Shown: positions 1 through 61,096, numbered from the stretch's first letter. The stretch: DNA of 61,096 bases from Candidatus Altimarinota bacterium (GCA_043769645.1 JAYVJC010000006.1:1-61096); one strand, 5' to 3'. Notes: generated by a model from the letters alone, not told the origin. Program-made: numbers and translations.

Positions 1-333
1 CTCAAGAAGTAAACTCCCCCCGAGGTATGTATGTACCATCACGAGTGAGATAAGCAAACTCGAAAGTATATGATGATGAATTCTATGTTCCCGTTGGAAG
101 AGGGGATGGAGGATATGTGTTTTCATAGAGAGGAGGTAAGGAAGAAACATTCGAAAAATCTACTACAGATTGATAGAATTAATAAAAAAAGAGAAAAAAC
201 CTTCGAAATGAATACCTTCTTATATTAATTTTAACATATGTATTTTGAAAATGCAAATATGAGCCTTATGATGAATATGTATATTATTTTGGTATTATTC
301 CAACTTGTAGATATACTATGGGTGAGATAGAAT

Positions 334-651
334 ATGAGTTTACTCACTTCATTTGATTCAAATCCTTTTAGAAACAATATGTTCATACTTCCAGTTCTTA
401 CACTTTTTCTCCTCGCTCCTATTTATACTATCAATAAAAAGATTTTTATAGGAGTACTGATACTTGAATGTATACTTTTTTTTGCGGGATATTTCTATAT
501 TACGATGACTTTTGAGAAACTTATGAATAAGACTCTCTACTTTACCGCTCTTGGATGATGAGCCCTTATACTTGCATTTATTGGTTTTTTTGTAGCGCTT
601 TTTTCGAATCAGAAACACCTCTATAATGATAACCCCGAAAATAATGAATAA
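334..651 (+). CDS. small hydrophobic membrane protein (hypothetical)
   Basis: ATG at 334. The standard ORF 334..558 stops at tandem TGA TGA. Reading TGA as Gly extends it in frame to TAA 649..651. Hydrophobic TM-like stretches are present. The stop overlaps the next start (ATGAATAA). Confidence 0.4.
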
Positions 652-1399
652 ATTCGACCAGATTTTCTTTTCCCAGTATGTAGATGAAAGTGATTCGATA
701 GCACGAGTATTTCATCGTCATGTATTTATCGTTTTGGAAGATATTACTCTTTGGACATTTTTTTGACTTTTTATACCAGGGTTTCTCTATTACTACAATG
801 CATTTTCTCTTCAATCGAGTTTGGAATCTTGGCAGGTGAATGTATGTATGATATTGATTTATATAATTCTTATCTATAAGCTCTGTGACTGGTACTATGA
901 CGTATGGATTGCAACGGAACGAACTATGATAGATGTGAGATGGAAATGGTTTACCTCCAATCTTCTTTACATTCCGTACGATAAAATTGAGGGAGTGGAA
1001 GTTCGCACGCGCTCTATATTTCACTCGTTTCTCGGTATTTCAGATGTCATTATCAAGCTTTCGGGAGATGATACTTTTACCCTTACTTCAGCTGCAAAAA
1101 GTAGCGAAATTCTCTCATACATCCAATCTATAGGAAGTAAAAAAAGGAAGTTTTCAGGCAACAATCGTGAACCATTTGATATTCTTGTCGAAACTCTTTC
1201 AGATGTTGTGAAAGGTCAAATGCTAGCCGGTGGGAAAGAGTATATCACAGAAGAGTATATCGAAAAACTTGATTCGACGCTTATTGATGAAGATACCATA
1301 GATCTGAGAAAGCCAGATGAAAAAATCATTATCGAAAACTGGAAGAAGCATCATGAGTATAGTGATGATAGTACAGGTGAAGCCACGGACCATCACTAA
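644..1399 (+). CDS. membrane-flanked bacterial PH-domain (bPH_2/YdbT-like) protein
   Basis: ATG at 644 with one in-frame TGA (764..766) joins to track ORF 821..1399. Two N-terminal hydrophobic helices are followed by ...IPYDKIEGVEVRTRSIFHSFLGISDVIIKLSG..., which resembles the bPH_2/DUF304 fold. Confidence 0.55.
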
Positions 1400-1658
1400 A
1401 AAATACTATTATATAGGCTCTTACCTGGAAGAAACTCACTCTTAAACTTACGTGTCATTTCCCATATAGTAAAATCAGTAGTCGGAAAATGAAAGGAGAA
1501 TATCTATCCATGATTGTATCACCTGCTTCTGAGGAGAGTGTAAGGGTGAAAATGGTAAAAAAAATGACAAAAGTTTTTGTCTTGAGATTTTTCTATTCCT
1601 ACTTGCCTCTCTGAGCTATATCTATAGAATAGAAGTCGCATTCTTTAACCTTTTTCTT

Positions 1659-1976
1659 ATGAAAATAGAAACTATTGTTCATGCCAATGATTTTACTACA
1701 GAACGAGAACTCATCGAAATCGAAGTTAATAAAAATATCTCCGGAAAACTCTCTGCCTATCTCAAAAAATATGATACACCTGATAGTATCATACGAATAG
1801 ATGTAATGGTAACTCGAGATAAAAAAAAGGATGAACGCTCAAAATCAACGGTCTCCGGGAAGGTGAAAATTGTAGCGGATGGGAATAGTTTTCTTAGTGA
1901 GCGAGAGGGATTCGAGAAGCTCGAAGACCTTATCAATCACCTGTTTACCCATATCAAGGAAAAAATGATGAGATAG
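1659..1976 (+). CDS. ribosome-associated inhibitor / hibernation factor (RaiA/HPF family), putative
   Basis: Intact 105-aa ORF ending in TAG. Size and charge pattern (...GKVKIVADGNSFLSEREGFEKLEDLINHLFTHIKEK) resemble short HPF/YfiA proteins. The match is by eye only. Confidence 0.45.
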   Translation: MKIETIVHANDFTTERELIEIEVNKNISGKLSAYLKKYDTPDSIIRIDVMVTRDKKKDERSKSTVSGKVKIVADGNSFLSEREGFEKLEDLINHLFTHIKEKMMR

Positions 1977-2028
1977 TCTGAGAGCATAGCGAGGAGATAC
2001 CATCTACTTACAAATCTGAATATAGCAC

Positions 2029-2931
2029 ATGAAAATAAACCAGTACATTCTCGGGGCTTCGCTGATTTCGCTCGCGGCGATACTCTGGTGACTGGATGGC
2101 ATTGTATTGACCCCGAATCTCTATAATCTCAACCTCAATTTTGTCGTCTTTATGCTCCACTTGATTCCTTTTTTATTGATGAATTTCTTTCTCTTTAGGG
2201 AGTCTTCTCGTCTCAAAAACTTTACGAAAGTAGAGCTCTGGACCCTCATAGGGATTGCCTTTTTCGGGGGAGTTCTTGGGACGCTTTCTATAGTAAAAGC
2301 GGTATTTCTCGTTCACTTTGATGGACTTTCTGTAGTAGCCTTACTTCAAAAACTACAGCCTATCTTTGCTATTATCCTCGCATACTTATTTCTTCACGAA
2401 AAACCGACCAAATACTTTCTTATTTTCGCTCTTGTTGCAATCATAGGAAGCTACTTTCTCATTTTTGGGAATCATCTTCCAAATATACAAAAAAATACCG
2501 ACTATATTTTGGCTATGGGTTTCGCCATTATCGCAGCTTTTTCTTTTGGGGTCACCACGATTTTGGGTAAGTTGGCAGCAAAGACACTTCCATTTCAGAC
2601 GATAACCTATTATCGATTTTGATTCACGGCTTTGCTTATGTTTTTTATAGTTCTCATTACCGGGAATCTCTCGGTTATAGGAGAGGTGACTTCTATGAAT
2701 TGGATGTATTTTTTTATTATTGCCTTCACGACTGGGTCAGGAGCAATATTTCTGTATTACTATGGACTCGTTCGAGTCTCTGCTTTGACCGCGACCCTTT
2801 GTGAACTCTTTTTCCCGCTCAGTACGGTGTTTTTCGATTACTTTATCAATCATAAAGTGCTTTCATGAGTTCAGATCTTCGCCTCGTTCGTCATTGTTGC
2901 TTCTATATTTGCTATTCATATCAAAAAATAA
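2029..2931 (+). CDS. EamA/DMT-family transporter
   Basis: ATG at 2029. In-frame TGA codons at 2089, 2620 and 2866 join track ORFs 2107..2622 and 2632..2868 and extend to TAA 2929..2931. About 10 hydrophobic segments, with two EamA-like halves. Confidence 0.7.
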
Positions 2932-2936
2932 TCTGT

Positions 2937-4124
2937 ATGCTTCCTATTATTCTCGGAATTCTTCTGACACTTTTCGTATTTTCCCTCATTGTTTTCATAC
3001 ATGAACTGGGGCATTTTATGACCGCTCGACTCACCGGTATGAAAGTAGAGGAATTTGGTATGGGGCTTCCACCCCGAGTTCGTACTCTCTTTACTGATAA
3101 GAAGGGGACTGTGTGGACGCTCAATGCCCTTCCTATCTGAGGCTTTGTCCGTATAAAGGGGGAAGATGTTTTTGCTGAATGATGAAAGGATAGTGATTCA
3201 TTTGCTTCGAAACCATGGTGGGCACGCTCTCTGGTACTCCTCGCCGGTGTCACGATGAATTTCCTCCTTGCCTATGTCGTGTTCGTCGGGGTCTTTCTTA
3301 CCGGAGCTACACCTATTGCCCCGAATACCATCATTGATACGAGTGCCCGTTCTTTTTTCCTCCCGAGTTTTGAACAGGCTCTAGCTACTGGTTTTATCAC
3401 TGAGAGCGGAGGACTCGTGATTAGCTCCGTGTCGGGAAGCATTGCAGAAAGGGCTGGAATCGGACAGTATGAAAAGATGAATTCTATCAATAACACTATA
3501 GTTAGTGACTATCCCTCCTTTCGAAAGGAAGTCGCAAAATGAGGGAGTATTGTCTTGAATCTTACGAGTTCTGGAGGAACTGCCCGAGTCGTGATAGTTA
3601 CTCCTGAAAATTGAAAAATAGGCGTATATGTCGGATATGATGGTCTCGAGATTCATAGGGATAGGAAACAATCATTTCCTCTCGGAGAATCTCTCAAAAA
3701 GTGATGACAGGAGTTGGTAGCGATGTGAATTTTTACGTGGGATGCTCTTGCAGACATGGTACGAAAACTTATATTTCCGAAGATTCCTGAGGAACGTAAG
3801 CAAGCGACAGATATGGTTTCCTGACCTATCGGTATCGGGAAAGTATTTGTCAGTGTTATCGAATACAGCGTACCATTTTCTACTGTTCTCGTACTTATAG
3901 CACTCATTTCCTTTAATCTTTGATTTTTCAATCTTCTTCCGATTCCGGCTCTTGATGGAGGGAGATGGTTTACGACCACACTTTCTTCTATAGTAAGCTT
4001 ATTGAGTATCAAGTGACAACTTGCTTGACAAAAGGTGGAAAAATACATCCATGGATTCTGATTCTTATTTCTTCTTGCACTCTCAGTTGTTGTGGCTATG
4101 ATAGATATAGGAAGATTTTTTTAA
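2937..4124 (+). CDS. rseP: RIP metalloprotease RseP (site-2 protease)
   Basis: Carries HELGH (HExxH), LPI-G(TGA)-GFVRIKGE, GPIGIGK and NLLPIPALDGG motifs. All frame-0 codons from 3540 to 4124 were checked: only TGA interruptions occur, and TAA is at 4122. Confidence 0.9.
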
Positions 4125-7150: not shown

Positions 7151-7210
7151 TGAGAAGGTACTTGTTAAATGGTATGTGTTAGTATCTTTCTTCACTTGTA
7201 AATCAACTCT

Positions 7211-8287
7211 ATGAATTTCGAAAAATATCTTATTCCATCTGTAAAAATAAAGGATAAAGTCCAGTTTTATGAGAATATTTCCAATCTCCTAGATGGATGA
7301 GTAAGCTTGATCCCTTCGATCCAGTGATACCGAGATCGAGTAGAACATTTGGGTGTCAAAAAAGAACTGGATAATCTTCTCTTTTTTCTCGAAGGAGGAG
7401 ATGCTTTGAGTATAAGTATGAGGAAGATCCCGAATTTTTTTTCTGATTGAGAAATGGCTATCATCGAAAGTGGTGAACAGACGGGAAATATGCAATCATC
7501 CTTTTCTTCCCTCGCTCATGATCTTAGAGATCAGGATGAACTCAGGGGAAAAATCAAGAGTGCGATGACATACCCTTTCATCATATTTCTCTTTTTGATT
7601 ATAGCGATCGCAATCGTGATGATCTATGTCCTTCCACAGATTCGTCAGATTATTGATCAAGCTCAAGGAGATCTTCCTTTTTCTACGAGGTCCCTCATGG
7701 CGGTAAGTGGGTTTATGCAAGAACACTTTCTTTTGATAATCCTTATTCTTCTTGGACTCGGGATGATTATTCGTGGTTATATCAGCACAGAACAGTGAAA
7801 TTACCGGTTTGATTTGTGGAAAATGCGAATTCCAATAATCGGAACTGTATACAGAAACTATCTGGTGGTAAAAGTAATGTCGACTTTCTCGTTGCTTCTT
7901 GGATCTGGGATTACTATTGTGAAAACCCTCAAACTCACATGAGCGAGTACGGATAATGTCGTCGTACAGGAGATTTTTCACAATATAGCGCATGCAGTAA
8001 GTCACTGAAGGAAGCTCGCAGAATCAATGAAGGAAGCTGATCCAGTAGGAAATATATTTACATCCAATATCCTTCAGATGGTCGAAAGTGCAGAAAAAAC
8101 GTCTACTGTCAATTTGGTGGCGAATAAACTTTCTACACAATATCGTCGCGAAGTGGACACCTCATTGGCTATAATGGTCAAATTTATCGAACCGATCGCA
8201 CTTATATTTGCTGCTATATTCGTACTTTGGTTTGCCATAGCGATATTTTCGGCTATTATGCAAGTGGTCTCAACAGCCTGACGCTAG
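7211..8287 (+). CDS. pilC: type IV pilus / type II secretion platform protein (PilC/GspF family)
   Basis: ATG at 7211. TGA codons join the upstream part to track ORFs 7454..7798 and 8027..8281, ending at TAG 8285. It shows the two-repeat GspF architecture (EsGEqtGnm..., ...MVESAEKTS...) and three TM segments. Confidence 0.85.
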
Positions 8288-8425: not shown

Positions 8426-8998
8426 ATGTATAAAAATCGAATACACTCATCCTGATTTACGATTGTGGAACTCCTCATTGTTATGTGTATTATAGCGATT
8501 CTCATGTCAGTAGTATTTATCCCATATAATTACTATATGGACAGAGGTCGTGTGGAACAGACCACCAATACCATAGCCCAAAGATGGACTCTCAGTCACA
8601 CTGATGTGAGAAACGGACTTCTCTTTGATATGACGACATGAAAAAATGCAAATGAACTCGTCAGTATATCTTCCGGTGCGACGAAGATAGATTTTTATCT
8701 CCTTTCCGGAACTACTATTCCCTCAAATCTACCCATCACTGTGACGAGCCCTGACATTCGATTTTCAGATAGTGTTTTTTTCCCAAAAAATATCTCCATA
8801 CTTTCTATAACAGGCGTTACTCTTGCCGGAGATGGGAAAAGTATCTGATATTTTCTCCAAGCTCCATATGGAAGTGGAATATTTTTTACCGAAACTACTC
8901 GATCTTCAACTTGAATAATACTTCTCATTGGATATCCTGGAGGAACTACTGCGAACTATCGCGCTCGAGAAATCTACCTTGCACCACAAAATTATTAG
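8426..8998 (+). CDS. prepilin-type N-terminal cleavage/methylation domain protein (pseudopilin 1)
   Basis: Begins MYKNRIHSS-G(TGA 8453)-FTIVELLIVMCIIAILM, a class III signal peptide with Glu at +5. Several in-frame TGA codons; TAG at 8996. Confidence 0.8.
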
Positions 8999-9036: not shown

Positions 9037-9714
9037 TTGAAATACTCACCTTCTACATCCTGATTTACCCTCATCGAGATGATGATAGGTATCCTCATAT
9101 TTAGTATCAGTATGGCCGGTATTTTTGTGCTGATACAGATGGCGATCACCTCGTCAGCACAGGTAAAACAAGAGATTATAGCGGCAAATCTTCTGAGAGA
9201 ACAGGTCGAACTCGTCAAGAATCTTCGAGATACCAATGTTCGTAACTTTCTCCCTTGGGATAGTATATTTCTCGATAAAACGACGACCGATAGATTCAGC
9301 TCATGATACTATATCATCGAAAATGACTTTTCTGCTAATTCTGAAAAAGTGAGTCTTGATTCTACAACGGGATACTTTATCAAATCACCAGTCTCTATGA
9401 GTCGTATTTTTAGTACTGGTATTCCTATCACTTTGAGTGATATATTTGTGGGATCGAGACTCTATGTTGATGATGTTGGTAGGTATAGTCATACCGTCAG
9501 CAGCAGACAGACTCCTTTTGCTTCCTATATCAGAGTGATACCACTAGAAATCCCCACTCTTCCGACTCCTACAACAATCGTAAAACTTGACTCGAGTACT
9601 CTGCCTGCGGTCATTCGACCCCAAGCATATAAGATCGAAGCACGAGTGATCGTATCTTCCCCCACCTATCGAGCGTATGAACTCAATACTATAATAACAG
9701 ATTGGAAAAAGTAA
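9037..9714 (+). CDS. prepilin-type pseudopilin 2
   Basis: Contains ...STS-G(TGA 9061)-FTLIEMMIGILIFSISMAG. It joins track ORFs 9079..9306 and 9349..9714. There is no upstream ATG, so TTG 9037 is only a proposed start. Confidence 0.7.
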
Positions 9715-9751: not shown

Positions 9752-10411
9752 ATGTTTCTCCCGAAGTTTCGGCCTACTGCATCCTGATTCACCATTGTCG
9801 AAATGATTCTCGTAACATTGATCTTTTCGATGATGAGCATAGCGGCTATTTCTGTTTATATTCAGACGACTGATATTTCTCATAAGCTTGAGATGACACG
9901 GTTTCTTTCCGAATCAGCTCGAGAAATTACAGAGCGAATCGCGAGTGATGTACGAGAGCGGGGAATAGACCTCACTGCTTTGGTCGATCCTACTTCGACG
10001 CACCCTGGATGGAATACGCATATGTATAGTCAAAGCTGAGGAGAAATCCTTTCGGTAAATGGATCGAGAATCTATATTTTTGGTCAAAAGAACAGTACCT
10101 GAATTGTACCATGTACTGAAGTGAAAAAAAATAACCCAAAAGAGATCTGTGGTATCTACTTAGTAGAATGAAGAAATTATGCTAACGCCCTGAATCTGGC
10201 TGATAGTTTTATTCCTGATGAATCAAAAAAACGTGTCAAGATACGAAATGCTACTTTTTTTGTTTCTGGAAACGATCTTACAGAAAATAAAGTTACTATG
10301 ATCTTTACACTCACCCTTACGAACCAGTCTGGAGTAAAGGGGGAGTACTTGGCGAATTCAGATTTTACCATCCAAACGACGATATCCGAACGCGGATTCC
10401 GTAAGTACTAA
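9752..10411 (+). CDS. prepilin-type pseudopilin 3
   Basis: Begins MFLPKFRPTAS-G(TGA 9785)-FTIVEMILVTLIFSMM. It extends track ORF 9803..10039 through three more TGA codons to TAA at 10409. Confidence 0.8.
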
Positions 10412-47219: not shown

Positions 47220-47221
47220 AG

Positions 47222-47803: not shown

Positions 47804-47829
47804 AGTTTGTATATATTTATATACAAACT
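47804..47829. promoter_or_regulatory. perfect 12-2-12 palindrome abutting the lexA start codon (candidate LexA operator)
   Basis: AGTTTGTATATA-TT-TATATACAAACT lies immediately 5' of the lexA ATG on the coding strand. Confidence 0.5.
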
Positions 47830-49429: not shown

Positions 49430-49430
49430 A

Positions 49431-49631: not shown

Positions 49632-49635
49632 AGGA

Positions 49636-49818: not shown

Positions 49819-49822
49819 AGGT

Positions 49823-50206: not shown

Positions 50207-50520
50207 TATTTAGTAATACGTGTAAGGATTTCCTCGAGTTGCTTTGATTGATTCTCGAGCTTTTTAGAGTGTCATTCGTGCCAATTATTCGAGGTTTGGA
50301 TCTGAGTGATAAAGGTATCTGATATCTTCTTGAGTTCTTCTCGAAAGAATTGATTTTGTTCAAAGGAAATTGTTTTGAAGTTCGTAAGTACCTCTTCGAA
50401 TTTCAGAGCCATATAAGGGATGCCTTTGAACATAAACCCAAAGAACGTTCCTACAAATAAGAGTCCTATTATTCAGTTCTGTGAGAGTAGTTGAGATGCG
50501 ATATGGTCTATTGATTCCAT
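50206..50520 (-). CDS. holin-like single-TM phage protein
   Basis: ATG at 50520 with two TGA codons. TM helix IIGLLFVGTFFGFMFKGI followed by a charged coiled tail. Its stop overlaps the next ATG (TAATG). Confidence 0.4.
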
Positions 50521-50548
50521 TATTGATTAAGTGGTTAGTTATAAGTAT

Positions 50549-51349
50549 TTATAAAAAAGACAAAAAAGAAGTATTAGCAGATGATGCTGTCGATGAAACC
50601 ATAGTAAATGTACCAGAAGAAGTAAAAGTATGTATAGTCTGTCATCAACTTGAGGTTATGGTTCCTCAAGTTGAAGTAGGAGACACTCCATCACTTCAAT
50701 TAGTAGCGTAAGAAATAATAACTATTCCTGATCATCCTGTTCCTCCAGTTCAAGCATTAGCACCTCACCCTCATCATCCAAGTCAATTTGTACCATTTCC
50801 TGCGGTTCAAAAGTTTGCAGCTCATGTACCTCAACCTCAAGTTCCTCAAGCCCCTCCTCCACCGTTTCCTCACCCTCACCCTCATCCTCAATAAGTCACC
50901 GCACTTCCACTAATAGAGTAACTTATCCCATTTCCTCAAGCACTTCATACGTTAGTTCCAGGTGTCGAAGACGCTGATCACGCACCTCATCATCCTGCTC
51001 CACTTCACGAACCTGTATTTCAGTTCGCTCCAGCGTTTCATTGTCCTCCAGTTCATGAAGCTCCTGTGGAAACACTTCACCATCCTCATCCTCATCCAGA
51101 TCATCCAGTTTGAGCGGAAAAAGCTGAATCAGAACCTCACCTTCATCACCCTATTGCGGTAAGTGAAGAGAATACAGAGTTAGTCCCACTTACGTGTGGT
51201 ATTCCTCAAGTTCCCACGGTTATAGAGTAGGATTGTGGAGTTACTGTAATTGAAGCTGAGTATAAAACTCCTCATGCTCCACCTCATCCAGGAGCTGAAT
51301 CCCCTCCTCATCCTCATCCCGCGACTACCAATGCTTTTACTGTTGCCAT
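50549..51349 (-). CDS. glycine-rich phage protein (tail-fibre-associated glycine-rich domain type), 266 aa with 40 TGA codons
   Basis: All 267 in-frame triplets were checked: no TAA or TAG before 50549, and 40 TGA codons. Starts MATVKALVVAGGGGGGDSAPGGGGAGGVLY, continues ...ITVTPQSYSITVGTGG..., and ends ...GTGGSGIVIISY... No minus-strand ORF is reported here by the standard track. Confidence 0.75.
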
Positions 51350-51350
51350 A

Positions 51351-51869
51351 TTATATATTTTGTCAAATAATATATCCTTGATAGATTCAGGCAGAAGTAC
51401 AAATAAAGCCAAAAGTATCTATTTTACTAGCTGTTGTGGTAAGAGTTGGCACAGTACCTCACACCCACTTAATAGTATTAAACCAGGTTACTGTTCGACT
51501 TCCAGTAGCATCTTGTATAAGGTCTATTACTATCTTGTCTCAAGGTAATATATTGTTTAATGCCAGAATTCTATTCCCCCCAAGAGTTACTCGATGGTAG
51601 TCTCATACATTCTTGTCAAACGTTATAGTTGCCCCGTCAGTATCTGTTACTATAGCACCCTTGATACTCGCAATTATTGGAGTAGTAAGTGTTTTATTCG
51701 TTAGAGTTACTGCTCACGTAGTAGTTACATAAATAGTATCAAAAACCCCTTTGAAGAGGTTATATATTCCTTGCCACGTCGTACTTCCAGCAACTCCACC
51801 TTGAGAAGCTGGAACTACGTCAGTTAATGCAGGAGTTGTGATGGTTGGTAGATTTGGAATTGTTGGCAT
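51351..51869 (-). CDS. phage fibre/receptor-binding-like structural protein (hypothetical)
   Basis: ATG at 51869 with 6 TGA codons; TAA at 51351, frame checked. Thr/Gly-rich beta-type sequence. It lies 1 nt upstream of the glycine-rich gene. Confidence 0.55.
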
Positions 51870-51874
51870 CTTTC

Positions 51875-52285
51875 TTAGAGGTTATCAGATACAGTCAAAG
51901 TGATCGTGACATTTCCTGTGGTATATGCAGTGATTTTAAACCCGATCCACCTGAGAATTGTCTGACGAGTATTGATCATATATTGCTTTGTTCCATCACT
52001 CGCACCAGAGTATACAAGACCTGTAGTTCCATTGAGAGTCGTGTTTGAATCTAGATCGATGATCTGCACAGGTGCATACTGATTTGTAGCAGATGATGCT
52101 ATAGTAAAGTCTGGCTTTGTTTCCTGAACTGATCCTAGAACCTGGACGGTAAGATTAGCAGAACCTGCTGCAGTTATTGCAAAGACTCCATTGATATAAT
52201 CTTGAAGTTGTATTGTTTTTCCACCAATGAGACCGAGTGTAGAAGCTGTCGAGAATGCGGTTGTTTGTACTTGTTTGACGGACAT
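51875..52285 (-). CDS. phage structural hypothetical protein (136 aa)
   Basis: Intact track ORF with a beta-rich Thr/Ser/Gly composition, downstream of the capsid gene. Confidence 0.5.
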   Translation of the reverse strand: MSVKQVQTTAFSTASTLGLIGGKTIQLQDYINGVFAITAAGSANLTVQVLGSVQETKPDFTIASSATNQYAPVQIIDLDSNTTLNGTTGLVYSGASDGTKQYMINTRQTILRWIGFKITAYTTGNVTITLTVSDNL

Positions 52286-52347
52286 ATGTGTATTTGTTAG
52301 AAAATTATTTCCTTCCTCCCCTCTCGAAAGAGGAGATAGGAAACAAC

Positions 52348-52758
52348 TTATATTGCGTTAGCAGTAGAGTTGGTATCAAACTGGATGAACTTACACGTCA
52401 CAGTCGCTACACCCGCACCTGTACAGGCACCAACAGTAGAAGATATGGAGATAAATTTTGTTCCAGCAGGGACAGTGACTTTTGAGCCTTTTACTGTAGC
52501 AGTCCTGAGATCTACTACAGCATTTGCACCGAGTCCAGATATGACAGTCGAGTAGAAGATCACACCATCTGCCTTGAGCTGAAGGTTTGTTCCTGTAGCA
52601 AGACCTGTGGCATCTGTACGGACAACGACCTCATCAAGGAGGAGACCGTTACCGATACACTGGATGATGTTGGTATCAGAAGTCAGGATGGCAGATGATG
52701 TAACATCTTTCTGCACCTGGAATGTACCGAATCCAGTTGAATTTGGAATTGTAGCCAT
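52348..52758 (-). CDS. phage structural hypothetical protein (136 aa)
   Basis: Intact track ORF. It is followed by the hairpin cctct-cgaa-agagg (52320..52333) in the 62-nt gap. Confidence 0.5.
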   Translation of the reverse strand: MATIPNSTGFGTFQVQKDVTSSAILTSDTNIIQCIGNGLLLDEVVVRTDATGLATGTNLQLKADGVIFYSTVISGLGANAVVDLRTATVKGSKVTVPAGTKFISISSTVGACTGAGVATVTCKFIQFDTNSTANAI

Positions 52759-52777
52759 GGGATTGAAAGATTAGAGA

Positions 52778-53785
52778 TTAAACACCTGTACCGTTTGAGA
52801 ACTTGACCCAACGACCTGATACAACAGCCATGATGATAGATGCGTGAGCACCGAATCTCCAGTTTTCTGTTGAAAAGTCTTCACCGTTATTTCCTTCGGT
52901 AGGAGTCTTGAGATATGGAGCCTCAGCAACACCAAATTGAAGTTGAGAGTTTGCGCTTGAAGCGATTCCCCAATATTTTGCCTTGGTAGTATCTGGAGCA
53001 CCAGTTGCAGTAGTAGCGACGAGAGGAAGAATGACGTGAGTCATACCGCCCTTATAGACGTTGTAGGCACCAGCATTTTGAGATGTTGGATTTGCAGTAG
53101 AGTTGAGAAGCTCTTGAACCTGATTGATCGTGTTGCGGTCATCAGTTGTCCAGATAATATCAAACTTCATAGTGAGCTTGAGACCGATATTGTTATAGGT
53201 CTGCTCAACTGCAACCTTTTGAGCTGCTTCGAGTGCACCCTTAGAGAAGAGTGGATTTGAAGGGATGATGTTTGAGTAAGTCGTAGACGAACCAGTGAGG
53301 GCGTGAGACGTAGAAGCGAGAGCGACGTTGTCACCAGTCGTGATATCGACGAGCTTTCCTTCTTGGGTTGTATAAGAAGTAGAGTATGCGAAACCAAAGC
53401 GGTGAGAGAGGTCGAGCTCCATACGAGCTGTACACACTTGAGAGAGATCAGTGAGTTTCTGAACGACATCAGCGTTTTTGTTGAACTTTCGTTCCTCAAC
53501 GGTGATGGCGATTTCGAGACCGATACGGTAGATAGACGCTGCCTTTTCAAGACCGTATTGAACGACTGATTGAGCAGTATTATCACCTTCATCCTTGATA
53601 CGAGCATAGATGTCGCGATCAGGAAGTTCGGCAAAGATTCGACTTTGTCCTGTTCCGAGTGGAACTGGAACGTTTTTCACGAGACCTGATTTCATGAAGT
53701 TTTGATCCACGGTGTCAGGTCATGCGACGAATACGCGATTGACCACATCAGTGAGTTGTGGCATCGTAATGGTAGAGAGTTGCAT
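52778..53785 (-). CDS. major capsid protein, putative
   Basis: 335 aa. Track ORF 52778..53710 is extended through one TGA to ATG 53785. The call rests on its size and its position after the scaffold-like and small head genes and before the fibre genes. I did not verify the fold. Confidence 0.6.
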
Positions 53786-53811
53786 ATGTATTTGTATTTA
53801 TAGAATTAAAA

Positions 53812-54309
53812 TTATGCTGTGACAATGTTCGGCATCGCAAATGTACCAATTCCACGAGTCGTAGAGATGAATCCACCATTCGGAGAGATGATAAATTGGT
53901 TACCATTCGTTGCGACTGCGACACCTGTAGCTGATGCAAGCGCACACGTGCGTCCTTGCTGTGCAGCTGAGTGTGTACCAGAACCAACGGTGAAGTAACA
54001 GCGAGATACACCTGGAGTTTTTGGCACCCAAACTGATTTCATTTTTCCAGCTGTTGCATAGTCTGCATCAGTAGAAGCGATTGGTTCAGCGAGAATACCT
54101 GCAAAGTTTTGACCGTTTGCAAAGGTCGTAGTTGCTGCAGTGACATACCCTGTTGGGTTTGAAGCGGTTACTTCAGTCATTACTGCAGAACCATCAGCGA
54201 TAACAACAGAGGCTTTCATAGGCATTTGCTTGAGAAGCCATTCTCCCTCCATAGGGTAGAAGTTTTGCGTTTTGTTCGCTCGGTTGAGAGGAGTGATTAC
54301 GGTAGGCAT
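53812..54309 (-). CDS. phage head-associated hypothetical protein (possible decoration protein)
   Basis: Intact 165-aa ORF immediately upstream of the capsid gene. Confidence 0.4.
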   Translation of the reverse strand: MPTVITPLNRANKTQNFYPMEGEWLLKQMPMKASVVIADGSAVMTEVTASNPTGYVTAATTTFANGQNFAGILAEPIASTDADYATAGKMKSVWVPKTPGVSRCYFTVGSGTHSAAQQGRTCALASATGVAVATNGNQFIISPNGGFISTTRGIGTFAMPNIVTA

Positions 54310-54339
54310 ATTTGTATATGTATAAAGAAATAATTGGGA

Positions 54340-54726
54340 CTATTCACCAAGGACTCTGCGGAAATCAGAGAGACGAACACGAGAAGCTTTTATCTCAGCA
54401 GGCTCATCACCTGTCATGCCAAATGCGGTTGCATACGCATCCATTTCTTTGTTCTTTATGGATTGAGCCAGCTTTCGGCTGATCATGTCCATGCGGAAGA
54501 ATTCTACATCGTGAGACTCGCATATAGATATGAGGTCTTGGACGATATGGAACTCGATGAGATCTGAGTACGCAGAAGGATCGAGAGACTCTTCTGTTTG
54601 GTTGTATGAGAGGTTTTTATCTGTGAAGATTGCTTCTGTACCGTCTTCGAATGAGACGAGAGAGCTTGGTATTTTTTGACCATCCAGAGGAGTGATCGTT
54701 TTTATTTGTTTGTCTCCGATGAACAT
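54340..54726 (-). CDS. phage hypothetical protein (128 aa)
   Basis: Intact track ORF ending in TAG. Confidence 0.45.
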   Translation of the reverse strand: MFIGDKQIKTITPLDGQKIPSSLVSFEDGTEAIFTDKNLSYNQTEESLDPSAYSDLIEFHIVQDLISICESHDVEFFRMDMISRKLAQSIKNKEMDAYATAFGMTGDEPAEIKASRVRLSDFRRVLGE

Positions 54727-54737
54727 AGGGTGATTGA

Positions 54738-55271
54738 TTAGTTGATATAAAGTTCAGGAACCTCGAACTCTCCGTGAGGAGTATTTTTGAACGTCCAGAA
54801 TTTGTGATTCTTCATGATCTTTTCCACTCCCTTATTGTTAAATGTGAGTGTGTCCATTCGGACATCGTTGATCTCGTGAAGCTCAAACCCTTCTGACCAT
54901 TCAAGAAGTTGCGTATAGAGGTCGTAGTCGACTTTCTCAGTTTCTCAGTCACTGAATGTGAGGAGGACTTCGTGCAGGTTGATATACTTATTCGTGACAT
55001 TATTTTTGACAGTCTGCATTGCGACAGTTTCCACTTTCACAATAGGTTTTCCGTTGTAGATTTTGTAGCGAAACGACCAGAGTGGTCATGCGTATTTCTC
55101 CTTGCTTTTTGTATTGGTATTGATGGTTCCGTTTTCCTTGAGTTCTTGATTCTCTTTTTCGAGTTTTGCAAGTCTTTCAAGGATTTGTGCTTGGAAGTCG
55201 TCTTTTTTAGGGACTCCAGGCGTATTTTCCTGACTATTTGTTTGTGTAGTTGTTGGGTTTTGCTTAGCCAT
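54738..55271 (-). CDS. phage hypothetical protein (177 aa)
   Basis: Track ORF 55086..55271 continues through TGA at 55086 and 54945 to TAA 54738, checked codon by codon. The N-terminal part is a coiled-coil. Confidence 0.5.
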
Positions 55272-55279
55272 ATATGATA

Positions 55280-55999
55280 TTATTTCTTAGAATATAAATG
55301 TCAGAGTCAGAGAGATTCAGCGAGTTCTTTCCCGCTATTTTTATCGTCTGGCGCTGGCTGTGAACTTCATCGACCGAGAGAAGCTGTTGATCCGAACATT
55401 GCAATGTTGAGATCGGCTTTTCCTGATACGATTTGTTCTTTCTGAGCGTAGAGAGTTGCCATTTCTGCAAATTCACGAGCTTCAATTGGAGCAAGGTCAC
55501 GTCATTCTGTGAGTTTCTTATACAGTCACTCGGCAGTTGTTCTCACTTCACCTGTGAGGTGAGTAAAAAACTCTGAAGCTTCTTTGTGAACACCTTCGTT
55601 GGCGAGCTCTCTTTTCAGTCGTTCTGCGAACTTCTTATATTGAGTCTCTTCGTCGAGAGGGTTCTCGTCCTTCTTGGAAGCTGGAGCAAGTTTGATTTGA
55701 TCGAGCGCTTTTTCGAGCGTGAGATTCCATCATTTCTTTGCTACATCTTTTGCGAGATCTGGGTCTTTTTCGCTTAGCTCTAAGAGATAAGCATTATCCT
55801 GTGAGACTTTTTCGACAGCGACATCAAGTGCCTTGTCATATCGAGCCTTGTAGGCGATAGCTTCTTGAGTACTTCCAGCATATTGTTGCTTGAGGCGCTC
55901 ATGGGCTGCGGCTAAGTCATCGTTTTTTTGAGACTGCGATCAGTCTTGAGGGTTGTCCGCGTTCGGAGCCTCCTTTTTTTCCTCTTGGTTGTCCAACAT
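55280..55999 (-). CDS. scaffolding-like phage protein (239 aa, helical and charged)
   Basis: ATG at 55999 with 7 TGA codons; TAA at 55280; 720 nt. The sequence is highly charged with predicted helices, and it lies between the portal and capsid genes. Confidence 0.5.
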
Positions 56000-56102
56000 A
56001 GGGGCAAGGGGTTAGTATGTAATAAGCTGTCCCATTTGGGAGGTAGCTATAAGTGAAGCGTACTTCGTGTCTTCTTACATCAAGAAAAAAAACTATTTTT
56101 CC

Positions 56103-56399
56103 TTATTTTTTGTGGTTTTTCTCCAACTCTTCGTACTTCTTGACCTGCTCTTCCATATCAGAGAGCTCATTTGCAAAGCCTTCTATTGCATTGATGAGCC
56201 AATAGGCTGGAGTTTCATTTCATTGGAAATTTCATGATCCGAGTTGTGCTCGGACTCCATCGATTTTGATTTGAAAGTACTTTTTGAGGATGTCTTTTCC
56301 CTTGATAAGAAACTCGGCTTCATCTTTGCTGATCGTGTGATCCTTTTCGATCTTGAGAGTTTTGAAGGCATCAGCGGAGAGAATATAGAATTGAGACAT
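56103..56399 (-). CDS. phage hypothetical protein (98 aa)
   Basis: ATG at 56399 with two TGA codons; TAA at 56103. It starts 3 nt after the portal stop. Confidence 0.45.
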
Positions 56400-56402
56400 A
56401 GA

Positions 56403-58358
56403 TTATTGGGTTACAGAAGTAGTATTGGTCGGAGCTTGTTCTTGTTGTGTCGGTACTCATTGCGCTGGTGGTTGTGGTGCTTGTGTAGGGGCTCATCCAG
56501 CTGGTGGCATTCCTGACATTCCACCACCCTGATCCTCACCACCCATTGCTTGAGCTTGGATATCAGCGATGAGTTGTTGTTTTGCTTGGTTCACTTCCTC
56601 TGGATCATCTCATGATGTTTGAGTATCGATGTCGAATAGTCTTGCGAGTTCTTTGATCGTTGACTTCTCTGGGATGATAGAGTCGAGATTTGGGATACTT
56701 GCATACGCATTCCCCACGGTGACGAGACGAGTGAAGAAGTCGAGCTTCTGTTCTTTCTCCACTTCATTGATCGTTGGAGCATTGAGGTTCGTAAAAATAT
56801 TCATACAGATCTTTCCACGGATGAAATCTGGCTTCACTTCGAGAAGTCCTGACTTTGGAGATTTGCTGAACTTTCCTTTCACATATTTCTCTCACTTCAG
56901 AGGAATGGTTGGATATGTCGGAGCAATATCTTCTTTCGGTTTGTTGTCGTTATCCACTTCGATGAGTTCTCGAACGAGCTTGATAGGAAAGAAGAGTTGG
57001 AGATTGTCCTTGTGGAGATTTCCCAGTCGGACGAATGCAGAGTCTCTATTGGTGAGAACTACATTCACACGTTGGAGAGAGCTTTCCTTCTGTACTGCGG
57101 TTTGATATGCAGTCTGTTGAGGATTCCCCATGATATTTCGGATGTCGATACCTGTATAGATAGCAATATCCGTGAAGATCGACTCCATGTAGTTGAAGAT
57201 GGCTTGATTCGGAGGATTTCCAGAGAGTTGGTTGAAATTCCCATTTCCTAGATTTCCCTTGAACTTGAGCATCTGGTTTCCATAGGCGAATTGGTTTCCA
57301 TCGAACTCAAGGTTTCCACCGATTGCAATGACCTGATTATTGCTTCGCTTGATAGCATCCATGAGCATCTCGCGAAGGTTGTTGAGGTCGCTCTTGAATG
57401 TCATAAGGATCTCACAGAGTCCTCGTCCATAGACAGAGAATGGATTCTTTGAGTATTGACGGATAACGAATGGGAGAGACTTCGAAGCATTGAGGATTGG
57501 ATGTTCTCGGATAATGACAGCATCATTTGCCACCTCGGCATACATATCTGCCTGACAGTCCCAGTAGTGAGTGATTTTCACATACTTTCCGCTCGATTCT
57601 CCTCGTTCTTCCTTGGTGACGAACTGGCGAGTATCTGCGTTGTAGATGTAACTTCCAACGATAGCGTCGGTGTTCTTGTAGACTTTGTTGAACTTGTAGT
57701 TTCGGAACTCTTCTTCTGGGATGTATTCGATAAAAACACAATCCACAGCATCCTCGATACTCTTGGCTTTATCATCGACGAAGAAGTTTCTGATATCCAC
57801 ATTCTCGAGGAGAATACGATTGGTGTTCTGCATCTTGCGAGTGAATGTGACATCTCCATTCTCGGAGATGGTTGGCTCATTGATGACGCGATATTTCATC
57901 TCGAATCCTGTATAGAGAACAGAAGTTCCGAAAATAGCGGTCACATATTCATTCTCGAGGACTGCGGAGTCTCGATTGTTCGTAGACCAGTCATAGTCCC
58001 ACACCTTTTCGAATGCTTCGGCTTGCTTTGAATAGTTCGAGTTTTCTTCCTCTATTTTGAATTGTGTCTTGCGCTTCACTGCCTCAGCAACGAAGAGCTC
58101 GACGATTGCCATCTCGAGAGGAACTTGAGAGCGTGATCGTCCATCCTCGTATGGAACATATATTGCGTCCCACATTTTTTGGTAGAGATCCCAGTACTTA
58201 TCGACTGCGGTTCGTTTGGCACGCATTGTCGTGAGTCGTCGTCCAATATGTCCCACGAGTTTCGATTCTCGATCATCATTTTGATGAGGATCTGTGATGA
58301 ATGGTTCGAGAACATCGAGCGTATTCTTTTTTGTATCTATAGTGATTTGTCCGTCCAT
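56403..58358 (-). CDS. portal protein, putative (651 aa)
   Basis: Track ORF 56892..58358 ends at a TGA and continues in frame through ORF 56610..56882 to TAA 56403 (1956 nt). The call rests on its size and its position directly after the large terminase. The C-terminal tail is Gln/Pro/Gly-rich. Confidence 0.65.
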
Positions 58359-58370
58359 ATTTGTATAGGG

Positions 58371-59972
58371 TTAAATATATTTGTATTCCATCTCTCAAGT
58401 GAGAGGGTTGGCTATCTGAACCTTGGTCTTTTCTTTCTCCTTCGGAACTCACCATTTTGCGAGGTAGTTCACGAGGTATTCGAATGCGGTTCGTCCGTGG
58501 GAGAATTGGTCGTGTTCGACTCTCGGATTGTCCTTTGTGATGAATTTGTCACCCATCTGGATTCCTTCGAGCTTCGAGTTCATAAGACAGTTGACGAGAT
58601 CGATAGTCTTTTCATTAAATCGACACCTGTAGAGATTTGCTTTTGTAGTTCGTATCTGTTCTTGCTTATCGAGGGTGATATCCGTGTTGAGGAATATCTT
58701 GTTGTCCTGGTAGTACTCGAAGATGGTTTTGTCAGCTCTCTCTGATGGTTTCGAGTGAGTGTCGTATGGATCTGCGATGTACTGGTGCGGTTTCTTGTAG
58801 CGAAGGTATCTCATATAGAACTCCAGTACTGCTCACTCCATAGGATTCTTGGGTTGTTTTCCGAGGAATGCAGCACACTCTTCTGGGATGATGGGGATTT
58901 CGATATAGTCGATGAAGTTCCAGTAGTGTCCTTGTACCTGCATCACGATGATGGCGTTTGGATCGACTCAAACGTGTGAGTTGTCTATTCCGATATAGAG
59001 AGGAAGACTCTCATCATATTCGAATACTTCGATCTTCCCTGTGATCTCTGGGTAGACTCGTCACTCGACCGAGGCGTTGTAGTCGATATCCAGTTCTTGT
59101 GCGATTTTCTGTGGTGGATCTTTCTTCTTCTGCGCTTCATACCATTCCTGTGTATAAAAAGGATGTTCTGACCAGTGGATTCGATGCCATCGGAATATCC
59201 CTTTCTCTGCCTTTGTCTTCATAAGGTAATATTCATTCCCCATCCCTGCTGGGGTAGAGTTGAATATTCGGCACGGTGTCGCACGAGAACAGGCAGTGTT
59301 CACGCTCGAAGCATTCGCCATACTTGCCATCTCATCAAGAAATATTGCATTATATGTTCCTCATCGTCCTGCATTCGGATTTGCTGATTCCCCTTGTATA
59401 GATCATGAACCATCTCATCTGGAGATATTCATACTCTTGTTGAACTCTGTTCCTGTATTCTTGTTGAATCATTTTGGAAGGAGCCACGGAGGAAGATTGC
59501 GCATCATGAATCGGAGCTTCTCGAAGTGTGATCGCATATCTCCAGCCTTGTCTACGTCAGACTCTTTCTGAGAGAGTGTGAGATACTTGTGATTGTGAAA
59601 GAGGTATCCATAAAGAAATACACCAAGTATGAGCCATGTGAGACCCATTTGACGTGATTTTTCGATGAATACATCGGTCGGGATAGGAACACCTTCTTCA
59701 TTGAATCGTGAAGTGATTGGAAGTGCTCCTGTTTGAATTGCATCCCAAAGATCAACAATAAATCCCCTTTGAAAATCAAAGAGAATGAAAGGAACTTCGT
59801 TCGGATATTCTGAACCATAAAAACCACCGTTTCGATCGGTGAAAAGAAAGTAATCAAAGAAAAATGTGATATCTCGTCGACACTGCTCGTAAACATAAGC
59901 GCGAAAGGTGGAATCTTTGCACTTATCCAGGAGTTTTGCTCTCGCTTCTATGTTCTGTCGATACGTTTGCAT
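58371..59972 (-). CDS. terminase large subunit
   Basis: 533 aa with 9 in-frame TGA codons joining track ORFs 59469.., 59061.. and 58449.., with all junctions translated. Contains ...GESANPNAGR-G(TGA)-GTYNAIFLDEMA... (ATPase Walker-B-like) and a C-terminal nuclease-like half. Confidence 0.8.
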
Positions 59973-60020
59973 AGTTTTATGCTATTTCATATCTTCTTAC
60001 ATCAAGTTTTTGGACTTATT

Positions 60021-60064
60021 TAGAACTTTTCTTGGATAAAAATAGAACTTTTCTTGGATAAAAT
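60021..60064. repeat. 22-bp tandem direct repeat x2
   Basis: tagaacttttcttggataaaaa / tagaacttttcttggataaaat. Confidence 0.85.
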
Positions 60065-60152
60065 GAGAATATTTGGGAAAGTTCGTGTATGTGACGTGTA
60101 GGTATACCAATTTCTATATAAATGTATCCCAATAGGATATATACACGAACTG

Positions 60153-60184
60153 GTGAGAATTAAGTGAGAATTAAGTGAGAATAG
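60153..60184. repeat. 11-bp tandem repeat x3 (gtgagaattaa)
   Basis: gtgagaattaa gtgagaattaa gtgagaatag. It is flanked by copies of the 10-mer ATACACGAAC at 60141..60150 and 60218..60227, plus an inverted copy at 60081..60090. Confidence 0.85.
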
Positions 60185-60359
60185 TTCGCGTGCCTTCTGG
60201 TTATATCAATATGGCACATACACGAACTCGATGTTTATAAATGTTGAGAGAAAGTTTATCAACTATTTATAAACTTTTTATTTGGCTTTGTAATACCGAG
60301 AGTTAAAGGAAATTAAAAAAAGTCTTGACTTGCTCTTGTTGTAAGAAGACAACAATTAT

Positions 60360-60487
60360 AGTAGAAAGTACATCCGCCAGTTGTGGCTTCTTCTCTTTGC
60401 TTGGTGATACTTATAGAGAGAAGGTCACAACATAAAGGCAGAGTATAAATCCCCCCTAAGTATCACTCCGCAAGGATAGGGGGGATT
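60360..60487 (+). ncRNA. candidate small phage transcript (promoter-like element to strong terminator)
   Basis: TTGACT (60325) and TTGTTGTAAGAAGA (60336..60349) with TATAGT (60356) lie upstream. There is no ORF, and it ends in a perfect 10-bp hairpin. Purely structural inference. Confidence 0.25.
60449..60487 (+). terminator. strong hairpin / terminator
   Basis: atccccccta-agtatcactccgcaagga-taggggggat followed by ttt. Confidence 0.6.
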
Positions 60488-60868
60488 TTATAATTCGAAC
60501 TCTCACGAGATATGCTATAAGGACTGCACGATCTGACTTATAGAACAACATCTAGCCACCGAATACAAATAATGCTAGCCCCCACCTGCCGACCGCTCCT
60601 CCTGAAAAGGAATGTAAAGTCAACTCTCAACCGCCACCAACTTTATTAAGATTGGGAAGGAGTCGTATAAATTACGAAATGGTACTAGTAACAAACAAAT
60701 AGTTTGCGAAGAAAGCTATCGAGCATATCTCTGGAGGGGATGATAGGGGAGGTGTATCTAGACATCCCCCGGCTCGGTTAGCCTCCTTTCTTAGGAATAT
60801 ATTTATAACCGAAATAAGATGAAAATTATATCACAACGATATGTAAAAACTTAAATTCTTCTAAAGCT

Positions 60869-61093
60869 ATGAAAAAACCAAAGAAAATCTTTATGATAAA
60901 TCGTGATCGAGCGTTAGAAATAATGTGGTATATGGATGCTTTATATGATGAATATAAGAAATTGAGCTATGAAATGTTAAGTGATAAAGTATCATATGCA
61001 GAATGGCAGATCACAAATATGTACTTTCTAGCAGGATATAGAGCTAATAAAGTAATTGAAAAACTCAAAGAAAGTAAAAATACTCTATTTTAA
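60869..61093 (+). CDS. phage hypothetical protein (74 aa)
   Basis: Intact track ORF on the opposite strand to the structural module, after about 0.9 kb of non-coding DNA. Confidence 0.45.
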   Translation: MKKPKKIFMINRDRALEIMWYMDALYDEYKKLSYEMLSDKVSYAEWQITNMYFLAGYRANKVIEKLKESKNTLF

Positions 61094-61096
61094 AAA

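Follow-up and report, generated by a model that had tools for sequence, protein, structure and literature searches.

The contig analyzed here very probably (at roughly 97%) belongs to a bacterium of the Gracilibacteria lineage (CPR/Patescibacteria) that uses NCBI translation table 25, in which UGA specifies glycine and only UAA and UAG terminate translation. Throughout, "the window" refers to the whole 61,096-nt stretch of DNA, in which we observed no difference from table 25. The Gracilibacteria and Absconditabacteria have been known to read UGA as glycine since 2013, with proteomic confirmation in 2014, and the table itself (the Candidate Division SR1/Absconditabacteria, Gracilibacteria code) reportedly goes back to Campbell et al. 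2013, Rinke et al. 2013, and Hanke et al. 2014. The TGA-glycine code is already established biology, and the value of finding it in this contig is practical, for annotation.

TGA is a sense codon in the window

Read with the standard code (table 11), the window contains 4 stop-to-stop open reading frames (ORFs) of at least 300 aa, versus 41 when TGA is treated as sense; freeing TAA or TAG as a control yields only 6 and 5, respectively. The share of the window covered by ORFs of at least 100 aa, counted without overlap, behaves in the same manner, rising from 44% when TGA terminates translation to 86% when it is read as sense, versus 55 to 56% when TAG or TAA is freed. The longer ORFs and higher coverage obtained by calling genes anew under other codes are, as such, specific to freed TGA and greatly exceed what chance would give.

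A length-based greedy caller, run with TGA as sense, produced several shadow ORFs (e.g., on the strand opposite DnaB) and was replaced by an iterated codon-usage caller, which supplied the ORF set used here (although note that where the real pilin gene lies, at 9037-9714, this caller still preferred a weak shadow ORF at 8995-9543 on the minus strand). Across the whole contig (1..61096), the set comprises 71 ORFs and 18,937 codons, 328 of which are in-frame TGAs, and 49 of the 55 larger ORFs have at least one. All 71 ORFs terminate in TAA (49) or TAG (22), and these ends fall near the C-termini of homologues, indicating that UAA and UAG are kept as stops. Approximately 22 Pfam families are matched at full length across in-frame TGAs, with no internal TAA or TAG. 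Together with the ORF counts, these matches bear out the contention of an earlier note on this DNA that genes read with the standard code are cut by TGA only. That note had also placed TGA in particular peptide contexts at ten coordinates (3138, 8453, 9061, 9785, 10502, 12653 [minus strand], 34526, 34544, 41179, and 41206), all of which we recovered, along with the peptide that it reported from PPK2. In this window, TGA is a sense codon, and UAA and UAG are the sole terminators.

Were TGA instead a true stop, the broken genes would have to be pseudogenes, products of sequencing or assembly error, or places where readthrough or selenocysteine insertion occasionally occurs, and under table 11 the genes do appear fragmented, like those of a decaying genome. 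But the interruptions are invariably in frame and invariably TGA, the ORFs are not restored by freeing either of the other stops, and neither selenocysteine nor programmed readthrough comes close to explaining as many as 328 sites, with 49 of the 55 larger ORFs affected. Selenocysteine is further opposed by the single cysteine found opposite TGA among 952 orthologous codon pairs, assembly error by an independent assembly that is 100% identical across 11.4 kb, and a stop function in general by the conservation of TGA sites, or their exchange with GGN, over 43 related loci. A true stop is, on this evidence, exceedingly improbable. Judged from the sequence, UGA may on rare occasions be misread, or may see dual use as a stop.

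Comparative evidence for glycine at TGA

Orthologous codon pairs between window TGAs and the 43 related loci (n = 952) are dominated by GGN (433) and TGA (296), with tryptophan and arginine found four times each and cysteine once. The partner profile of TGA in these loci is that of GGA, GGT, GGG, and GGC; glycine is encoded by 66% of the partners that are not identical to the window codon, and TGG is absent from the main partners of TGA in both directions. In the closest relative (L004) alone, TGA is paired with TGA 28 times, exchanged with GGN 27 times, and aligned to other codons 6 times, with no instance of TGG. Overall, about three-quarters of TGAs pair with glycine or TGA in close relatives, and about one-quarter face non-glycine residues, as GGN codons do.

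Protein families and solved structures were consistent with this pattern. Scoring Pfam families with glycine versus tryptophan at TGA gave higher values for glycine in 16 of the 17 families that could still be scored with tryptophan, for a total gain of about 103 bits; in an eighteenth family, Gly_rich_2, the match was lost with tryptophan. In alignments to distant homologues with solved structures (PDB), glycine occupies 18 of 39 TGA columns (46%) and tryptophan none, the glycine columns including motifs of RseP, GltX, rubredoxin, PPK2, DnaB, and HI0933. Alignment to family models and a tally of residues at TGA columns therefore favor glycine over tryptophan. The earlier note had TGA falling on invariant glycines, which holds for conserved motifs; the remaining TGAs occupy variable columns, as is the case for ordinary GGN codons. 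These comparisons show UGA to be an ordinary glycine codon, exchangeable with GGN over evolutionary time and contributing about 25% of the glycine codons in the window.

UGA encodes tryptophan under table 4, the code of Mycoplasma, Spiroplasma, and several insect endosymbionts. This code resembles that of the window in that UGA is sense, and it gives an identical ORF structure, such that ORF boundaries cannot discriminate it from table 25; moreover, a public protein collection contains tryptophan versions of proteins from this window and lacks the glycine versions. It differs in that the TGAs of the window swap with GGN and align to glycine rather than to TGG or tryptophan (4 of 952 pairs, versus 433 for GGN). 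The absence of tryptophan from all 39 structural columns, the loss of Pfam score in 16 of 17 families, the disappearance of Gly_rich_2, and the normal tRNA-Trp(CCA) of relatives all stand against it as well. The comparative data already refute the tryptophan reading, to which we assign a negligible chance, in agreement with the earlier note, which had ruled out a Mycoplasma-type code.

Conserved glycines in individual genes

Glycine-encoding TGAs are seen most readily in genes with well-characterized motifs. On the plus strand, the RseP/M50 site-2 protease (2856..4124) contains 13 TGAs, including that at 3138 (LPI-TGA-GFVRIKGE); its Peptidase_M50 score is 143 bits with X at TGA, 147.7 with glycine, and 130.5 with tryptophan, and alignment to PDB 9j82 places glycine in 5 of the 13 TGA columns, three conserved motifs included. 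GltX (34478..35968, plus strand) has five TGAs, two of which, at 34526 and 34544, lie within PSPT-TGA-YLHIG-TGA-LRTALY. Glycine is found at three of these five columns in PDB 4gri and at four in 1j09, and the tRNA-synt_1c score is 311.6 bits with glycine versus 295.0 with tryptophan. Further along the same strand, MltG/YceG (37972..39105), which also has in-frame TGAs, scores 175.1 bits with glycine and 167.2 with tryptophan against Pfam YceG; PPK2 (39240..40427; Pfam PPK2) has four TGAs, with glycine at both of the columns that align to PDB 5llb; and a ferric-reductase/rubredoxin/FNR fusion (40477..41946; Pfam Rubredoxin) carries TGAs at 41179 and 41206 in the GD and PGT motifs of its rubredoxin domain, where both columns are glycine in PDB 9zdo and 1s24.

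Genes on the minus strand behave similarly. DnaB helicase (12227..13606; Pfam DnaB_C, 344 bits) contains four TGAs, and of the two columns aligned to PDB 2vye, that of the TGA at 12653-12655 is glycine and the other is serine. An HI0933-like flavoprotein (42669..44117) has 10 TGAs and scores 211.9 bits with glycine versus 199.8 with tryptophan in Pfam; compared with PDB 2i0z, two conserved TGA columns are glycine, and the others are variable. Pfam matches also identify a Y-family polymerase (IMS) and an S24 LexA/UmuD-like peptidase (46014..47827, minus strand), with seven and four TGAs, respectively. Two additional genes are encoded on the plus strand, DnaA (23057..24520; Pfam Bac_DnaA), with a single TGA, and an RsmI-type methyltransferase (25059..25826; Pfam TP_methylase), with four. 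As an aside, the dnaA gene adjoins a switch in gene strand and the minimum of the cumulative GC skew in the composition profile.

Pilin-like genes and their candidate cleavage-site glycines

A PilC/T2SSF platform protein (7202..8287, plus strand; Pfam T2SSF) contains seven TGAs, and three of six aligned TGA columns are glycine in PDB 3jc8. In four candidate pilin genes on the same strand, the earlier note had assigned TGA to the -1 glycine of the prepilin cleavage site. TGA is indeed present at all four positions, and the expected pattern (a short leader ending in Gly(-1), then F-[TS]-[LI]-[IV]-E, then a hydrophobic helix) is found in three of the four candidates. In the first (8426..8998), the TGA at 8453 precedes FTIVELL, and the Pfam N_methyl (PF07963) score is 27.0 bits with glycine and 14.2 with tryptophan; in the second (9037..9714, with a TTG start at 9037), the TGA at 9061 precedes FTLIEMM, with scores of 33.6 and 23.9 bits. 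Both glycine scores exceed the cut-off of 21.2 bits, and glycine at TGA restores the N_methyl motif across the cleavage site. In the third gene (9752..10411), the TGA at 9785 occupies the -1 position before FTIVEMI, and its score with glycine (20.5 bits, versus 7.9 with tryptophan) is just below the cut-off. In the putative fourth pilin-like protein (10472..11407), the TGA at 10502 (HK-TGA-FSILMAL) is followed by a sequence lacking the glutamate at position 5, and N_methyl gives no match with either glycine or tryptophan.

Lineage and comparison with other codes

Among GTDB species genomes, those with the nearest relatives of GltX bear the name Candidatus Gracilibacteria (best identity, 91%, to JAYUDN010000042.1), and they display the same TGA-sense signal as the window, which is missing from control loci of Kerfeldbacteria and Kiritimatiellae. 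The placement of the contig among CPR bacteria of the Gracilibacteria/Absconditabacteria type, as proposed in the earlier note, is thereby upheld, the nearest genomes being Gracilibacteria MAGs. The G+C content of the window organism is moderately low at 40%, yet on the high side of the range reported for the table 25 clade (0.21 to 0.53; PMC8629427). In another bacterium, of the BD1-5 group, proteomics assigned UGA-specific peptides to glycine in 97 cases, to tryptophan in 3, and to a stop in none (PMC4032931).

Some members of this broader clade, which likewise read UGA as glycine, are predicted to have gone further, with reassignment of CGA and CGG to tryptophan in Absconditabacteria and some Gracilibacteria, CGG being the codon predicted for some of the latter (Shulgina and Eddy 2021; PMC8629427). 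The window differs from these in that CGA and CGG are both common (243 and 76 occurrences) and act as arginine codons, with arginine encoded by 57% (CGA) and 70% (CGG) of the differing partner codons. When the window is compared with the related loci, TGA is the sole codon whose main partner indicates a non-standard meaning; the other codons that were flagged (ATG, TGG, and GAT) owe this to absent or marginal synonymous partners. Code changes in the window beyond table 25 are accordingly very improbable, and the codon comparisons argue that no codon besides TGA is reassigned.

Decoding machinery

The window itself encodes no tRNA or other noncoding RNA detectable by ARAGORN and Rfam and no release-factor gene, and among 45 related loci ARAGORN recovered only tRNA-Trp(CCA) and tRNA-Leu(UAA), with no tRNA(UCA). 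What is known of the lineage suggests that UGA would be read by a dedicated tRNA-Gly(UCA) bearing glycine identity elements in its acceptor stem, and that release factor 2 (prfB) would be missing, leaving no competitor for UGA. Published genomes of BD1-5 lack prfB and retain prfA (PMC6851277), and tRNA-Gly(UCA) is expected in recoded members of the clade, with RF2 present instead in non-recoded members (PMC8629427).

A candidate for such a tRNA occurs on recoded metagenome contigs, where a conserved 76-nt tRNA (GCGGGGGTAACATAA..CTAAGGCTTCAACCCTTGG..CCGCT) combines a UCA anticodon with G1-C72, C2-G71, G3-C70, and U73, although the anticodon and the glycine acceptor elements were set by the search pattern and do not constitute independent findings. 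This tRNA often adjoins tRNA-Gly(GCC), and on some contigs its neighboring genes are 65 to 80% identical to named Gracilibacteria loci; the family is seen on metagenome contigs and is not tied to the genome of the window.

Phage-derived genes

A phage-derived block on the minus strand (48881..59981), recognized by Pfam and PHROGs, encodes an amidase, tail fibers, structural ORFs, a portal protein (four TGAs), and a large terminase (nine TGAs). This block needs TGA as sense too, and it shares the code, as is reported for prophages of Gracilibacteria (PMC10746230). Within it, a glycine-rich fiber-like protein (50549..51418, minus strand; Pfam Gly_rich_2) contains 40 TGAs and 52 GGN codons among its 289 codons, the two alternating in G-x-G runs; its Gly_rich_2 score rises from 31.1 bits with X at TGA to 51.4 with glycine and goes unreported with tryptophan (E > 1e-5). 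We saw no integrase and no convincing att-type direct repeats flanking the block. A search for assembled contigs extending the window returned only short Logan contigs, one of which corresponds to 48601-60050 and is the independent, 100%-identical assembly of 11.4 kb mentioned above. Sequencing runs SRR22198277, SRR22198278, and SRR23617290 contain the organism.

Uneven usage of TGA

TGA is not used evenly among genes. Variable, A+T-rich cassette genes are interspersed between conserved genes (24.5 to 25.1, 25.8 to 29.3, and 30.5 to 32.6 kb), and the TGA share of glycine codons is 43 to 92% in the cassettes and a phage fiber gene versus 4 to 30% in core genes, a contrast that is confounded because orthologue coverage is limited to about 10 kb around GltX. 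We set this core-versus-accessory contrast aside and relied on the correlation with GC3 alone: UGA is the most A+T-rich of the glycine codons, and its share climbs in A+T-rich genes. That the uneven usage is biologically meaningful, as opposed to simple A+T drift, seems unlikely; if it were, TGA-rich genes could mark a mobile pool confined to hosts that use code 25 (a "genetic firewall") or, alternatively, could be genes in which the availability of tRNA-Gly(UCA) modulates translation. Neither the TGA-rich ORFs of the cassettes nor one Cys-rich paralogue nor the ORF at 11426-12196 had a match in NCBIfam.

Consequences for annotation

Gene calls made with table 11 shatter the 49 TGA-containing members of the 55 larger genes. 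The warning in the earlier note that such annotation would be badly wrong is borne out by the Logan contig identical to 48601-60050, whose genes were predicted with TGA terminating translation and are fragmented. Calls made with table 4 set gene boundaries correctly but put tryptophan on functionally critical glycines, including those in the motifs of RseP and GltX, in GD and PGT of rubredoxin, and at position -1 of the prepilins. The error is passed on to homology searches, predicted structures, and family models that rest on fragmented or tryptophan-translated sequences, and such sequences are already in circulation: in a public collection of 15 billion protein sequences, the EamA and GltX proteins of this contig are stored with tryptophan, not glycine, at TGA.

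Evidence for UGA as a sense codon

The window (61,096 bp; G+C content, 40.4%) is a whole contig, since an exact-sequence look-up located its proteins on a public contig of 61,096 bp. All 10 coordinates cited in an earlier note are TGA codons in the peptide contexts claimed there: RseP (3138), GltX (34526 and 34544), DnaB (12653, minus strand), the rubredoxin domain (41179 and 41206), and four pilin-like N termini (8453, 9061, 9785, and 10502); the PPK2 peptide context was likewise found.

UGA is a sense codon in the window, and UAA and UAG terminate. Read with table 11 (TGA as stop), the window holds 4 stop-to-stop ORFs of ≥300 aa, and non-overlapping ORFs of ≥100 aa cover 44% of it (median, 132 aa), whereas TGA as sense gives 41 such ORFs and 86% coverage (median, 268 aa); as controls, TAA as sense gives 6 ORFs and 55%, and TAG as sense gives 5 and 56%. 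A codon-usage gene caller treating TGA as sense places 71 ORFs over 93% of the window, terminated by TAA (49) or TAG (22), with 328 in-frame TGAs among 18,937 codons and at least one TGA in 49 of the 55 ORFs of ≥120 aa. With TGA coded as X, full-length Pfam matches run across TGA for Peptidase_M50, EamA, PrsW, T2SSF, DnaB, L19, DnaA, TP_methylase, GNAT, rhodanese, HisKA/HATPase, tRNA-synt_1c, YceG, PPK2, rubredoxin/FNR, HI0933, sigma-70 r2, IMS, S24, Amidase_2, Gly_rich_2, and phage portal, and none of these matches is interrupted by TAA or TAG.

Amino acid identity at TGA

Three independent lines (profile scores, solved-structure homologues, and codon exchange) agree in pointing to glycine as the amino acid at TGA. 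The alternative, a Mycoplasma-type reading as Trp (table 4), is contradicted by each. When twelve concatenated proteins containing 108 TGAs were scored against Pfam with G or W at TGA, G outscored W in 16 of the 17 families that still score with W (total gain, ~103 bits), including tRNA-synt_1c (311.6 versus 295.0 bits), Peptidase_M50 (147.7 versus 130.5), HI0933_like (211.9 versus 199.8), and PPK2 (294.8 versus 285.4); the sole family without a gain, Anticodon_2, contains no TGA. Gly_rich_2 goes from 31.1 bits with X to 51.4 with G, and the match is lost with W.

In the best solved-structure matches of RseP, GltX, HI0933, PilC, rubredoxin, DnaB, and PPK2, all standard-code proteins, Gly stands at 18 of 39 TGA columns and Trp at none. 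The Gly columns include LPL-G-GYV, G-G-P, and L-G-xFNLLP in RseP; PSPT-G and HIG-G in GltX; G-D and P-G-T in rubredoxin; G-EIVxFDRSWY in PPK2; ES-G-L in DnaB; and FVT-G-G and TG-G-F in HI0933. Not every TGA falls on an invariant glycine: the columns other than these 18 are variable positions.

A type IV pilus module (window 7202 to 11407) comprises PilC and, after it, four pilin-like genes, of which three are confirmed and one is doubtful. In all cases, the −1 Gly ahead of the FT[IL][IV]E motif is a TGA codon. The N termini of the three confirmed genes score 27.0, 33.6, and 20.5 bits against N_methyl with G versus 14.2, 23.9, and 7.9 with W, and the match spans the cleavage site with G only.

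Codon exchange is free of any translation assumption. A single GltX scan of GTDB species genomes returned 45 loci (43 related and two outgroup). The nearest carry the name Candidatus Gracilibacteria (best, JAYUDN010000042.1; 91% GltX identity), and the related loci show the same TGA-sense ORF signal, bearing out the placement of the contig in a Gracilibacteria-type lineage; the signal is absent from the two outgroup loci (Kerfeldbacteria and Kiritimatiellae). Across the 43 related loci, window TGA forms 952 aligned pairs, among them 433 with GGN glycine codons, 296 with TGA, 4 with TGG (Trp), 4 with Arg, and 1 with Cys. Window GGA, GGT, GGG, and GGC (296 to 2,183 pairs each) pair with Gly in 59 to 67% and with TGA in 10 to 16% of cases, and window TGG (908 pairs) pairs with Trp 718 times (79%), TGA being absent among its listed partners. 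Against the closest relative alone, the counts are 28 TGA-TGA, 27 TGA-GGN, 6 other codons, and 0 TGG. Two related Gracilibacteria loci (L014, 19005 to 19079; L025, 17388 to 17462) encode a normal tRNA-Trp(CCA), in keeping with a non-Trp reading of UGA.

Four GTDB loci labeled “uncultured Candidatus Peribacteria” (L012, L013, L017, and L018) have GltX proteins 66 to 67% identical to that of the window and a strong TGA-sense ORF signal. Because Peribacteria proper are described as standard-code users, the label looks like a taxonomy-mapping artifact.

Other codons and the known code

CGA/CGG-to-Trp reassignment has been predicted for Absconditabacteria and some Gracilibacteria (Shulgina and Eddy, PMC8629427), and all 62 codons were therefore screened, leaving out partner codons identical to the window codon. 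TGA is the sole codon whose main partner has a nonstandard meaning (66% Gly among differing partners), and the code of the window is therefore plain table 25. Arg accounts for 57% of differing partners of CGA (243 codons) and 70% of those of CGG (76 codons), so both act as arginine codons here. ATG and TGG were flagged for want of synonymous codons and GAT only marginally (E, 26%, versus D, 24%); none represents a reassignment. The reading of UGA as glycine is correct yet already known: the organism belongs to the clade for which table 25 was defined.

Proposed mechanism

UGA is synonymous with GGN; in the larger ORFs, it accounts for 312 of 1,243 glycine codons (~25%). By lineage, UGA would be decoded by a tRNA-Gly(UCA), and RF2 would be missing. 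All BD1-5 genomes then available lack prfB and have prfA (Sieber et al., PMC6851277); tRNA-Gly(UCA) is expected in recoded members, with RF2 instead in nonrecoded ones (Shulgina and Eddy, PMC8629427); and peptides specific to UGA translation numbered 97 for Gly, 3 for Trp, and 0 for stop (Hanke et al., PMC4032931).

The 61,096-bp window contains no tRNA genes or Rfam matches. One scan of public metagenome contigs, with a pattern imposing a UCA anticodon, a glycine-type acceptor stem, and U73, matched at least 120 loci. Of 120 matches listed, 87 form one conserved 76-nt family (anticodon arm, CTAAGG-CTTCAAC-CCTTGG), with the CCA end encoded in both examples extracted (L054 and L132). ARAGORN confirmed a tRNA with anticodon tca in 12 of 12 loci checked, and among the matches listed, 41 of 47 loci of ≥5 kb have ≥2.5-fold-higher long-ORF coverage with TGA as sense. 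In 6 of the 12 checked loci, all recoded metagenome contigs, tRNA(UCA) lies 7 to 60 nt from a tRNA-Gly(GCC) (L054, 624 to 796; L114, 3980 to 4151; L128, 9309 to 9505; L132, 8159 to 8320; L140, 10034 to 10203; L155, 10898 to 11059), a closeness that suggests joint expression; both tRNAs have a GCT-CCA end (U73). Flanking ORFs at some loci are 65 to 80% identical to ORFs of loci named Gracilibacteria (L005 and L016) or labeled Patescibacteria group bacterium (L034). The identity elements of the family were set by the pattern; the family supports the mechanism at the level of the lineage rather than for the window genome.

Consequences for annotation

That table 11 annotation would be badly wrong is borne out by a Logan contig that matches window 48601 to 60050 with 100% identity and whose table 11 calls cut the portal to 488 aa and leave the terminase in pieces; the gene calls on other Logan contigs from this organism treat TGA as sense, so that codes differ between contigs. 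In a 15-billion-sequence public protein collection, the window EamA and GltX appear with W at every TGA, in the style of code 4 (P0001 and P0005), and G versions are absent. Calling with table 4 therefore gives correct ORF boundaries yet mistranslates ~1.7% of residues, including many conserved glycines.

Cassettes, phage-derived genes, and other features

TGA makes up a smaller share of glycine codons in ORFs of higher GC3 (Spearman rho, −0.41; P = 0.0017) and attains a share of 43 to 92% in A+T-rich cassette ORFs and a glycine-rich fiber. The A+T-rich ORFs (24542 to 25108, 25832 to 29320, 30532 to 31089, and 31559 to 32572; GC3, 0.18 to 0.28; 49 to 92% of Gly as TGA) have no family matches and sit between the conserved genes for DnaA, RsmI, rhodanese, and HisK. 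The ORFs resemble variable cassettes: in the closest relative (L004), they are either different or missing, and the intervals separating conserved genes are unlike in length and content.

An 11-kb phage-derived block (48881 to 59981, minus strand) encodes an Amidase_2 lysin, the glycine-rich fiber, a tail-fiber-like protein, a portal, and a large terminase, along with several structural ORFs that lack annotation; neither an integrase nor att repeats turned up. The block is also assembled as a separate, 100% identical contig of 11,450 bp in run SRR22198278 (Logan contig L001, equal to window 48601 to 60050). Most genes of the block contain in-frame TGA, and it shares the code, as do Gracilibacteria prophages, in which in-frame TGA is dense (PMC10746230).

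Four tandem paralogues of 537 to 712 aa, rich in Cys motifs (15762 to 22849, minus strand), have a common C terminus, NWSDYEAP...IPDD..NWAIECEVSGKPF.I..QEL.FYRK..LPIP..HPD; Pfam gave one weak zf_Tbcl match only, and NCBIfam gave none for the one paralogue searched (19011 to 20639). The replication origin likely lies at ~22850 to 23060, upstream of dnaA, since genes there switch from the minus to the plus strand and cumulative GC skew reaches its minimum at ~23 to 25 kb.
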